A stretch of 64,000 nucleotides of DNA, from the NCBI GenBank assembly GCA_964106645.2, contig OZ067043.1; one strand, 5' to 3'. This stretch comes from Podarcis pityusensis. Its lineage: Eukaryota. Below are positions 9,001-11,970 of the stretch, piece after piece (within the stretch, counting starts at the first letter, position 1; each line of letters opens with the position of its first letter). The position numbers are program-made.

Positions 9001-11970
9001 AGAAGAATTTGCCACTTGAGCTAAGTACACCTGGACAAACAGAAGCTGGGACAGAGCAACAGGAGCTCATCCCGTCATGTGGATTTGAACCACTGACCTT
9101 CTGATCAGCAAGCTCAAGAGGCTCAGTGGTTTAGACCACCCACTCCAACCTAGCAGTTTGAAAGCACACCAGTGCAAGTAGATAAATAGGTACCACTGCG
9201 ATGGGAAGGTAAACAGTGTTTCCATGCGCTCTGGCTTCCGTCACAGTGTTCCATTGCACCAGAAGCGGTTTAGTCATGCTGATTACATGACCCGGAAAGT
9301 TTTCTGTGGACAAGCACCGGCTCCCTCAGCCTGAAAGCGATATGAGCGCTGCAACCCCATAGTCACCTTTGACTGGACTTAACTGTCCAGGGGTCCTTTA
9401 CTTTTAACTTTTTACCTGGACAAACACTTTAAGGCCTTTTTTATGGGATTAGCTTTGTACCTAGCAGCAGCACCAGATCTTCCTCCTCAAAATGTCCTTC
9501 CCGTTTTGTAAAAATCCTGTATTCCATTGATGGAAGTGTACAATTGGGAATGCAAAGCACCCCAAAGCTGACATTCACGACTGCAGAGCTTTTGGTTTAA
9601 GTTTTAAATGGGGTTTCCTAGAAAAAGCAAAATTGTAAGAATAGATCTTCACACATTTCACTAAATAAGGACCTGGGATTGAGTACTTCTGTATAAAAAT
9701 ACCAAGTTTGTAATGATAATGTATATGTAAGTAAGAGTAAGAGCAATATGAGTGAAATAAGAATTCATCATGTAAAGCCTTAAGTACACTATAACAAAAC
9801 TTAATAAACAACTCCAAAGAAAATGTCAGACCCATCTTTTTGTCACTGTGCACATTATGTTTCCACCCCTCCTCTAAATGAATGTTTATTACACCACAAT
9901 CTCACTGAAAACAGATATGCTGTGTTTTTTTCGAAGTAACTGCAAACAAATGGTGGAAACCACTACAATCAACTATAGTGCACTCAGATGGTGCTTCTGA
10001 AGAATAGATCTGTCACATTTGTCACATCTGCATCTGTCACACACATTTGAAAAGTGCTGCACGATCACAGCTATCACAGATTTTGCATATCAGCATCCAC
10101 ATAGGGCAGAGATGGGCACCTTCAGCCTGTGGGTCTCATTAACCCTGCCTGGCCTCCATTTGACCTGCAAGGCCATCCTGGCCAACCCATGCCTACATTT
10201 GATGTCATATATGGCACAGGTAAAGATATGGCTCAGCTTAAAGACCGTTTGCAGGCACTGCTGATGGGTGGTACCTGCACAAAGCACTGGGCACTGGACT
10301 TCTCAAACCCTGTTGGTCAGAGTTTTTGAAGTGCTCTGCACAGGGTTTAGCAATCTCAATCTTTTGTCTGATTGTAGCATTTTGCAGAGGGCTATGCATC
10401 AGGCTTTGCAAAATCCTGCTATCAGTTGATGTACAGGACTTTGTAGACCTTGCCTTTGACCACACAGTTTGATTTCGAAATTGTGTGAGCAAAAATTGGT
10501 CACCTAACATCATCTGAGTATCAGCTCAGTGACAGGTGACCCCACCCACTTTAAAACTTTACCTATGCAGTTGGGAAGATGGATCCAGTTCCCACCCTGG
10601 CATATAGGCACCAATTTACAAAAAAAAGTGTCTCTGTGCAAATGTGCTTTGGTCACAAGCTCAATGGGCAAACATGGGCACTCCCAAAGTGATGGCAAGA
10701 GAATCTTTCTATTATGTGTGACCCAAGTTAAAGGCACTGCGATGATAATGATGATAATAATTATAAGATTTGTGAGTCACCTACACAAAGCCTCTCAGCA
10801 ACTTACAACATAATAATTAGAAATGCAATTTAAATGTAACACATTAAGTGTGAGACCATGTGAGACATTCTGCACCCTCAATGCAGTTTACAGGATTTTC
10901 TCAAAAAATATACATTAACAATTTACCCTTGATATGTCATTATTTACCCAGGAAGGAAACTTTTGAGATCTAGCTTTGATCTGGAGGAGGAATCCTTCAA
11001 AGGAATGGTAATTGATTCAGCAATTAGCACTGCGTTAACATGGAGCCTGCAAGCAGCAGGTCGGAGGGGAAGCTAGGAAAAGACCTTTAAAAGACAGCAA
11101 GTGTCCTCTGAATTAATCAGAATAGCCTAATTCTAAGACTGAGAAGGATAAAACAATGTTTGCAGGCACGTGCATAGTGTAGGCACAGTGAAGTAAATAT
11201 GCAGTCATCACAGGAGAATTGTGTACTTCTTACACAGGAGTGTAGGAATTTTGACATATCTGAAGTGATGCCAAGAAACAGCATGGTCCAAGGGACCATA
11301 AGACAATGTCTTTACTGGGAACAAGCCCAAGTTCACACTTTAGCATGCAAGCTTTGAGTTGCATAGAACAGTTCCTCCTGCTGGGGTTTTAAAAATACAG
11401 TGGTACCTCGGCTTACAAATGCTTCAGGTTACAGACTCCACTAACCCAGAAATAGAGCTTCAGGTTAAGAACTTTGCTTCAGGATGAGAACAGAAATCAT
11501 GCTCCGGTGGCGCGGCAACAGCAGGAGGCCCCATTAGCTAAAGTGGTGCTTCAGGTTAAGAACAGTTTCAGGTTAAGTATGGACCTCTGGAACGAATTAA
11601 GTACTTAACCCGAGGTACCACTGTATAAGAGGTAACTCACATCTGATACTTTTTTTCTAAGGTTGACATACGTCTGGGAAAACCTGGACAGGTCCTCTTT
11701 TTGGAGGCCAACATGCCCATCAGGGCAAATTTTTACATTTTAAAGGAAATGTCCGTTTGTTGGGGGGGGGGGCCTTGGGCTGCTCTGCACACCACAGCTG
11801 CTGCCAGCCGGAACCAGTAAAAGAGGTGCATGGACACAGTGGCAGTGGCCCCACATACCCACGCCTGTGTTTCTCTTTCCCCAGCTTGGGATGTCTTCTT
11901 TTTTGCTCTTCAAGATATGGCAACCCTGTTTTTACCTACACGATCACAGCTTCTCATGGGTAGGGGAAAA

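Follow-up and report, generated by a model that had tools for sequence, protein, structure and literature searches.

Two Sauria SINE insertions with the geometry of twin priming in a 64-kb stretch of Podarcis pityusensis DNA

Sauria SINE copies in the window

We examined a stretch of 64,000 bases of the lizard Podarcis pityusensis (contig OZ067043.1 of assembly GCA_964106645.2, one strand; N count 0, G+C 0.43), referred to here as the window, and identified four loci of a short interspersed element (SINE) that fits the Sauria family. In two of the four, the 5′ part of the element is inverted, and both parts lie inside a single pair of target site duplications (TSDs). Here we refer to the inverted copies as 9k and 16k, and to the two colinear reference copies as 42k and 53k (Table 1). 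The copies were compared by blastn of 9029-9426 against the window and by a MAFFT alignment (A1), and an nhmmer profile built from A1, run over the 64-kb window, detected no further locus. The three other copies recovered by blastn were all on the minus strand, at 53375-53679 (with a 5′-truncated head), 41917-42246 and 16154-16448. The copies form two subfamily pairs, 9k with 53k (85.9%) and 16k with 42k (88.9%).

The element fits a Sauria SINE by its length, its tail and, as far as likeness can be judged by eye, its sequence. The 42k copy, at ~340 nt, is within the expected Sauria length of ~330 nt, and the queries published in the accessible part of the supplement of PMC13295347 measure 326-359 nt (Varanus 256). 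All four tails lack poly(A) and consist of degenerate (ACCTTT)n repeats, namely ..GGGGTCCCTTTACCTCTTTAC in 42k, ..GGGGTCCTTTACCTTTATCTTTTTT in 53k, ..GGGGTCCTTTACTTTTAACTTTTT in 9k and TCCCTTTACCTT in 16k; (ACCTTT)n is given as the tail repeat unit of Sauria SINEs in the available portions of PMC6007223 and PMC13295347. A P. muralis flank in the same supplement excerpt (..CCAGAAGCGGCTTAGTCATGCTGGCCACATGACCCGGAAGCTGTACGCC..GGGGTCCCTTTACCTTTACC) appeared colinear with the 42k and 16k copies; this and all other comparisons with P. muralis were made by eye, from the sequence printed there. Searches for a tRNA-like head gave 0 ARAGORN genes in the window and 0 Rfam matches at the gathering score, and relaxing Rfam to E<=10 on two SINE heads returned chance-level matches only, none of them to a tRNA. 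B-box-like GGTTCAAATCC and GGTTTGAATCC are visible in the SINE heads, the likeness being judged against what we take to be the box consensus. When the RNA of the colinear 42k copy was folded to learn if the internal priming sites are unpaired, the z-score was -1.47, with 10 of 100 shuffles folding equally well, so that the fold is uninformative.

In the 9k copy, ACCTGGACAAACA occurs at the two ends of the insertion and nowhere else in the 64 kb, and it encloses an insert of 372 nt. To score such repeats we used a null of 20,000 pairs of 42-nt windows, placed at random with a spacing of 300-400 nt, in which exact direct repeats of at least 13 nt were found in 2 pairs, at least 12 nt in 4 and at least 11 nt in 8. 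The inverted head (blastn, query 12-111) matched 42149-42246 (80%), 16351-16448 (76%) and 53644-53679 (91.7%), while the sense segment was 85.9% identical over 269 nt to 53643-53375. An earlier sequence-only reading had described a 13-bp repeat enclosing a SINE with its head inverted and the rest in sense, and both blastn and MAFFT recovered this arrangement. The same reading had noted that the breakpoint is contiguous relative to the 53k copy (..CTTCTG|CCAACC..). Indeed, the two breakpoints, 9040 and 9145, fall on adjacent bases in all three other copies, each colinear across this point (53644/53643, 42149/42148 and 16351/16350), so no sequence was lost or gained. In the MAFFT alignment these copies read ..CAGCT(C/T)CTG|CCAACCTAGCAG.. 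across the junction. The reverse complement of 9040-9139 ends in ..CAGCTTCTG and is directly followed by the TSD; the TSD-proximal end of the inverted head is thus ..CCCAGCTTCTG, the base immediately before the start of the sense body, which opens with CCAACCTAGCAG at 9145. At the 5′ junction, as had also been read before, there is a microhomology of 2 nt, CA at 9040-9041 being both the last bases of the TSD and the first bases of the inverted head.

Five bases, CCACT (9140-9144), on which the sequence-only reading was silent, stand between the inverted head and the body of the 9k copy and differ from the 42k and 16k heads at this point of the MAFFT alignment. They may be the 5′-most head bases of the 9k subfamily, or filler. 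The window holds no second head of the 9k subfamily with which to compare them, six motifs sought for such a head in the accessible part of the PMC13295347 supplement gave 0 matches, and a full-text literature search with three SINE motifs returned unrelated papers only.

The 16k copy is a second insertion with the geometry of 9k, from the other subfamily and with other breakpoints. The 11-mer TACTATATTTC was seen twice in the window, and the longest flank repeat stretches it to 12 nt, enclosing an insert of 318 nt. The inverted SINE is ~310 nt long, reaches the true 5′ end of the element and is 88.9% identical to the 42k copy over 297 nt. On its own strand, the body of this copy halts at ..GCAACCCCAGAG with the tail absent, and upstream of its head lies AAGGTAAAGGGA, the reverse complement of a SINE tail. 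The end of the body (..CCCCAGAG) adjoins one TSD, and the tail, in the opposite orientation, adjoins the other. Read in the + orientation, this sense tail matches the 42k tail at 11/11 positions and the 53k tail at 12/12, and only 8-12 nt of it survive. Between the two segments ~30 nt are missing (TCATCC..CAGGGG in the 42k copy, alignment A3), and at the inversion junction a 4-nt microhomology, TCCC (16462-16465), is common to the inverted end and to the start of the tail. The 5′ junction again has a 2-nt microhomology, where CT closes the TSD and is shared with the inverted SINE; CT fits the expected SINE bases, which read ..CCCCAG-AG in the three other copies (alignment A3).

Since the two inverted copies differ in subfamily and in breakpoints, they represent independent events. 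The flanks of the colinear copies had no repeats above chance, the best being 6 nt for 42k (41901-41906 and 42252-42257) and 5 nt for 53k (53345-53349 and 53720-53724). The presence of 12-13-bp TSDs on the inverted copies only could reflect age, or a link of long TSDs to inversion like that reported for L1. Beside the 53k tail, at 53300-53372 (-), we noted a SINE-like fragment with a tRNA-like T-arm motif (..GGGAGACCCAGTTTCAAATCCCAGGTGAGG..), of which the window has no second copy.

Table 1 Positions of the SINE segments and of the other mobile elements in the window
Feature	Position	Strand	Basis or remark
5′ TSD ACCTGGACAAACA of the 9k insertion	9029..9041	+	only two occurrences in the window; null for at least 13 nt, 2/20,000
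Inverted 5′ segment of 9k, SINE head	9040..9139	-	blastn, alignment A1, nhmmer
CCACT, inversion junction of 9k	9140..9144	.	outside every blastn match
Sense 3′ segment of 9k, SINE body and T-rich tail (..GGGGTCCTTTACTTTTAACTTTTT)	9145..9413	+	blastn, alignments A1 and A3
3′ TSD ACCTGGACAAACA of the 9k insertion	9414..9426	+	first bases ACCT keep the ACCTTT register of the tail
5′ TSD TACTATATTTCT of the 16k insertion	16144..16155	+	flank comparison; null for at least 12 nt, 4/20,000
Inverted 5′ segment of 16k, SINE GGGATGTGAGTAGCGCTGTGGG.. to ..CCCCAGAG	16154..16465	-	match to 42k copy; sequence
Sense 3′ segment of 16k, tail TCCCTTTACCTT	16462..16473	+	tail matches; alignment A3
3′ TSD TACTATATTTCT of the 16k insertion	16474..16485	+	first 3 nt TAC keep the register of the tail
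Reference copy 42k, colinear, nearly full length	41905..42250	-	blastn, profile
Reference copy 53k, colinear, 5′-truncated, 9k subfamily	53375..53695	-	blastn, profile
Bov-B LINE fragment, decayed, broken frames	32912..35085 (approximate)	-	Pfam Exo_endo_phos and RVT_1
MITE copies (five)	5141-5373, 11395-11627, 12188-12411 (-), 31138-31366, 59728-59958		

Probable twin priming at the two inverted copies

Both loci have the layout of a twin-priming product, that is, a TSD, an inverted 5′ part, a sense 3′ part with the tail, and the second TSD. In the source RNA, the TSD-proximal inverted end and the start of the sense part are separated by 0 nt in 9k and by a deletion of ~30 nt in 16k. The 2-nt microhomologies of the two 5′ junctions (CA/TG and CT/AG) involve bases that are present in all colinear copies. 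The twin-priming geometry proposed for 9k by the sequence-only reading was therefore supported, as every feature of it that the window allows to be checked was found and a second, independent copy is alike. The 12-13-bp TSDs are also inside the range of 10-20 bp given for L1 5′ inversions in the available part of PMC4245944, and 5′-inverted L1 copies as a rule have microhomology at the 5′ junction, which was absent in only 28/605 cases according to the accessible portion of PMC2912911.

It is probable that both loci are single retrotransposition events in which a Sauria SINE RNA was inserted by twin priming, most likely by a Bov-B enzyme. From the layout of the two copies, we infer the following order of events. 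The endonuclease of a long interspersed element (LINE) would nick the bottom strand, and the freed 3′ end, paired with the (ACCUUU)n RNA tail, would start a first complementary DNA (cDNA 1). The top strand would be cut 12-13 bp downstream before cDNA 1 was complete, and its 3′ overhang would anneal over 2 nt inside the same RNA. A second cDNA (cDNA 2), primed by this overhang, would extend towards the 5′ end of the RNA, after which the 3′ ends of cDNA 1 and cDNA 2 would be joined and filled in.

In the case of 9k, cDNA 1 would have stopped exactly at the annealed top-strand primer, which would account for the perfect contiguity of the two segments. In the case of 16k, only 8-12 nt of cDNA 1 would survive, and cDNA 2 would have begun ~30 nt further upstream and copied the RNA as far as its first base; the TCCC microhomology would mark where the two cDNAs were joined. 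The second priming would then have occurred before cDNA 1 had grown beyond a few tens of nucleotides. That cDNA 2 reached the RNA 5′ end is indicated by a full-length P. muralis Bov-B copy in the accessible part of the PMC13295347 supplement, in which GGGACGCGGGTAGCGCTGTGGG directly follows a 14-bp TSD and the sequence then runs, by eye, for ~190 nt homologous to the SINE head; the inverted part of 16k starts in the same way, with GGGATGTGAGTAGCGCTGTGGG.

Bov-B as the presumed enzyme and the alternatives

The sequence-only reading had named the squamate RTE machinery, with L1 acting in trans as the alternative. We infer that the enzyme was likely the Bov-B protein, of the RTE clade and regarded as the mobiliser of Sauria SINEs, because the tails are (ACCTTT)n without poly(A), the targets are unlike L1 sites and a Bov-B fragment is present in the window; of the two options, the RTE one is thus favoured. 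The first bases of both TSDs continue the ACCTTT register, as ..TTT|ACCT in 9k and ..ACCTT|TAC in 16k. The target sites at the TSD starts are AC|ACCT (9k) and GG|TACT (16k), and the L1 target consensus is TT|AAAA.

The Bov-B fragment holds the endonuclease and the start of the reverse transcriptase (RT), while its 3′ half is absent. It matches L1 ORF2p weakly (E = 3e-7), and a 22-nt Bov-B motif from the accessible part of the PMC13295347 supplement matches it with 1 mismatch; ~190 nt of it are, by eye, near-identical to the P. muralis Bov-B copy printed in the same excerpt. The RT reading ends after FIDYVKAFDC, and in several kb on both strands 0/5 and 0/38 open reading frames matched an RT family. 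The fragment is of the same family as the presumed mobiliser, not the source of the events. A search for the SINE tail beside its 3′ side by blastn-short and Smith-Waterman gave scores of 26-31, within the range of shuffled sequences (mean 26.6, maximum 39).

We also considered the Bov-B fragment as a third inverted example and rejected it, as there was no direct repeat of at least 8 nt at its ends and no RT remainder. As an observation in its own right, a 3′-truncated LINE such as this one does not correspond to the product of target-primed reverse transcription. Full-length P. muralis Bov-B copies in the PMC13295347 supplement open, immediately after the TSD, with ~190 nt of homology to the front of the Sauria SINE, from the head through ..GTGCAAGTAGATAAATAGG (compare 16350-16465). 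Bov-B and the Sauria SINE would seem, by this likeness in the printed excerpt, to share a 5′ module besides the 3′ tail.

Several points weigh against twin priming by Bov-B as set out here. Both the mechanism and the frequency discussed below rest on two loci of one window. The microhomologies, which were read in hindsight, are short and singly not significant; 2 nt are expected by chance in 1/16 of cases. The CCACT at the inversion junction of 9k is not accounted for, and microhomology at this junction is ambiguous. With no recognisable TSD on the colinear copies, the window lacks an internal standard for a normal TSD. The sharing of a tail between the SINE and the 3′ end of Bov-B is not demonstrable here because the Bov-B copy of the window has no 3′ half. 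Finally, Sauria insertions have a target signature, Tn-TA, in which the TSD starts with T and TTT lies ~10 nt upstream (available portion of PMC13295347). This signature fails at 9k, whose TSD has A as its first base and whose closest upstream TTT lies at a distance of 19-21 nt, and is found in part at 16k, where the TSD starts with TA and TT is at -11/-10. As Tn-TA is a statistical tendency, it decides nothing on the enzyme for two sites.

It is unlikely that twin priming took place with another LINE of the lizard, L1 or CR1/L2, acting in trans in place of Bov-B. The enzyme leaves no record in the sequence, the 9k target misfits the Tn-TA signature, and lizards have several LINE clades (PMC5389967 and PMC4476161, as far as their accessible parts go). 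However, both TSDs are in the (ACCTTT)n register, as expected if the tail annealed to the nick. As for L1 in particular, poly(A) tails and A-rich TSD starts are absent from both copies, and neither target resembles the L1 consensus.

Somewhat less likely still is a colinear insertion that was rearranged later, with a local inversion of the head in 9k and an inversion plus a deletion in 16k, either by two breaks or by template switching during replication. The same final sequence would result if the stretch between the exact SINE 5′ end and an internal point had been flipped in place, and CA/TG and CT/AG can be read as minimal inverted repeats. Such a flip, however, would need a breakpoint exactly at the boundary of SINE and TSD in two independent loci, the inverted repeats at the breakpoints never exceed 2 nt, and 16k would also require a 30-nt deletion at the same junction. 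The second independent copy, with its different breakpoints, makes a later inversion very unlikely, and the same holds for separate insertions and for a single inverted master.

That the template was already rearranged, as an inverted master, which the sequence-only reading had raised, or as a chimeric read-through RNA, we regard as highly improbable. The breakpoints of each inverted copy are shared by 0/3 of the other copies in the window, an inverted head would misdirect the internal promoter, and the 16k form would offer the RT only 8-12 nt of tail; furthermore, the end of the inverted part coincides with the natural 5′ end of the element. Equally improbable are assembly artefacts. Repeats are indeed prone to misassembly, but the inversions measure 100 and 310 bp and have unique flanks and perfect TSDs, their junctions carry microhomology as would a biological event, and an assembler would not make matching TSDs. 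As for an antisense fragment and a 5′-truncated sense copy that were inserted independently, next to or within one another, SINEs do cluster and the 53k copy adjoins another SINE-like fragment, but this is the least probable explanation of all, given that both parts are inside a single TSD pair, that exact adjacency in the source would arise in ~1 in 300 cases for random truncation points, and that the antisense pieces are tailless, unlike products of target-primed reverse transcription.

Frequency of inversion, known systems and other repeats

Leaving aside the 9k copy, which had drawn attention to the window, 1 of the 3 remaining copies is inverted. In the accessible part of PMC2912911, 5′-inverted insertions number 639/2068 for L1, 1/5554 for Alu and 4/477 for SVA. 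At the Alu rate, the probability of at least one inverted copy in 3 is ~5e-4, and the one-sided 95% lower bound on the inversion rate from 1/3 copies, a tiny sample, is ~1.7%. This argues that 5′ inversion is far from rare among these copies, as far as so small a sample goes. Tentatively, and with the balance tilting a little against it, twin-priming 5′ inversion could be common, at a few per cent to tens of per cent, for Bov-B-driven Sauria SINEs in the lizard lineage, that is, at least 100 times the Alu rate.

Two inverted copies out of four of a 330-nt SINE with no poly(A) suggest that the RTE-clade enzyme performs twin priming too, perhaps often. This bears on the question of LINE integration, in which the timing of the second-strand cut relative to first-strand synthesis is at issue. 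If inversion were indeed common, second-strand cleavage by the RTE-clade enzyme would come very early, when first-strand synthesis had covered no more than some tens of nucleotides, and its timing would be naturally recorded in the distribution of breakpoints. Many SINEs annotated as 3′-truncated and antisense would, in that case, be unrecognised products of twin priming whose opposite end carries an inverted tail of a few bases. Copies like 16k look like 3′-truncated antisense SINEs to standard annotation, and would therefore be overlooked; SINE-based phylogenetic work and surveys of TSDs would likewise misinterpret inverted copies.

Twin priming of L1 was reportedly described by Ostertag and Kazazian in 2001. 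The Sauria copies share with it the layout of TSD, inverted 5′ part, sense 3′ part and TSD, the microhomology at both junctions, TSDs of a length within 10-20 bp, and an inversion junction that is precise or has a small deletion (PMC2912911 and PMC4245944, in their available portions). They differ from it in the template, here a ~330-nt SINE RNA whose tail is of the (ACCTTT)n type and lacks poly(A), in the squamate host, and in the presumed enzyme, a single-ORF RTE-clade protein in place of L1 ORF2p. Alu and SVA are alike in that a non-autonomous element is 5′-inverted by the machinery of its partner LINE, whereas inversion is extremely rare there by the counts in the accessible part of PMC2912911, as against 2/4 Sauria copies.

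By tail, length and sequence, the four copies belong with ordinary Sauria SINE and Bov-B insertions of the Tn-TA signature, which also have TSDs of at least 10 bp (PMC13295347 and PMC6007223, available portions). In those portions, the two papers on ordinary insertions are silent on inversions, and their TSD scan would be blind to whether a copy is inverted or colinear. The terms "twin priming", "inversion" and "inverted" are absent from the accessible main text of PMC13295347; in PMC6007223, "twin priming" and "inversion" occur once each, in the same entry of the reference list, and "inverted" 0 times; and in the available part of PMC5389967 "twin priming" is found in the reference list only.

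In the cell assays covered by the accessible portion of PMC4245944, 5′ inversions were seen for human L1 in human cells only, with the exception of one Nimb-2_DR insert in DT40 cells; ZfL2-1 gave no 5′ inversion, and no RTE-clade element was among those assayed. The Nimb-2_DR insert indicates that 5′ inversion is not strictly bound to L1. Inverted U5/U1-L1 chimeras, which have been ascribed to twin priming, are also alike, in that a small RNA is primed internally by the end of the top strand and the junction shows complementarity, but they involve two different RNAs and their enzyme is L1; for lizard RTE and L2, the same source, in its accessible part, has template-switch chimeras only (PMC4476161). 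Among the titles and passages listed from the literature outside paywalled journals, none connects RTE, Bov-B or Sauria SINEs with 5′ inversion or twin priming, in agreement with the earlier remark that the phenomenon is little described. The Sauria SINE case suggests an extension of twin priming, which in the papers searched has been described almost only for mammalian L1.

A second repeat family was examined for its relevance to the inversion and was set aside as having no bearing on it, since it is a miniature inverted-repeat transposable element (MITE) of ~230 bp with terminal inverted repeats (TACAGTGGTACCTCGGGTTA...TAACCCGAGGTACCACTGTA). Its five copies (Table 1) are 86-93% alike, and the same MITE is present in a P. 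muralis flank in the accessible part of the PMC13295347 supplement. The copy at 31138-31366 is located within a (GT)n microsatellite, with GT repeats at 31107-31137 and 31367-31390. Opposite-strand self-matches revealed near-perfect palindromes at 47853-47903 (92% over 52 nt) and 51999-52101 (85% over 103 nt). A tandem duplication of ~120 nt with 77.5% identity was also identified at 19176-19438, inside the region 18876-19475, which has long open frames on both strands.

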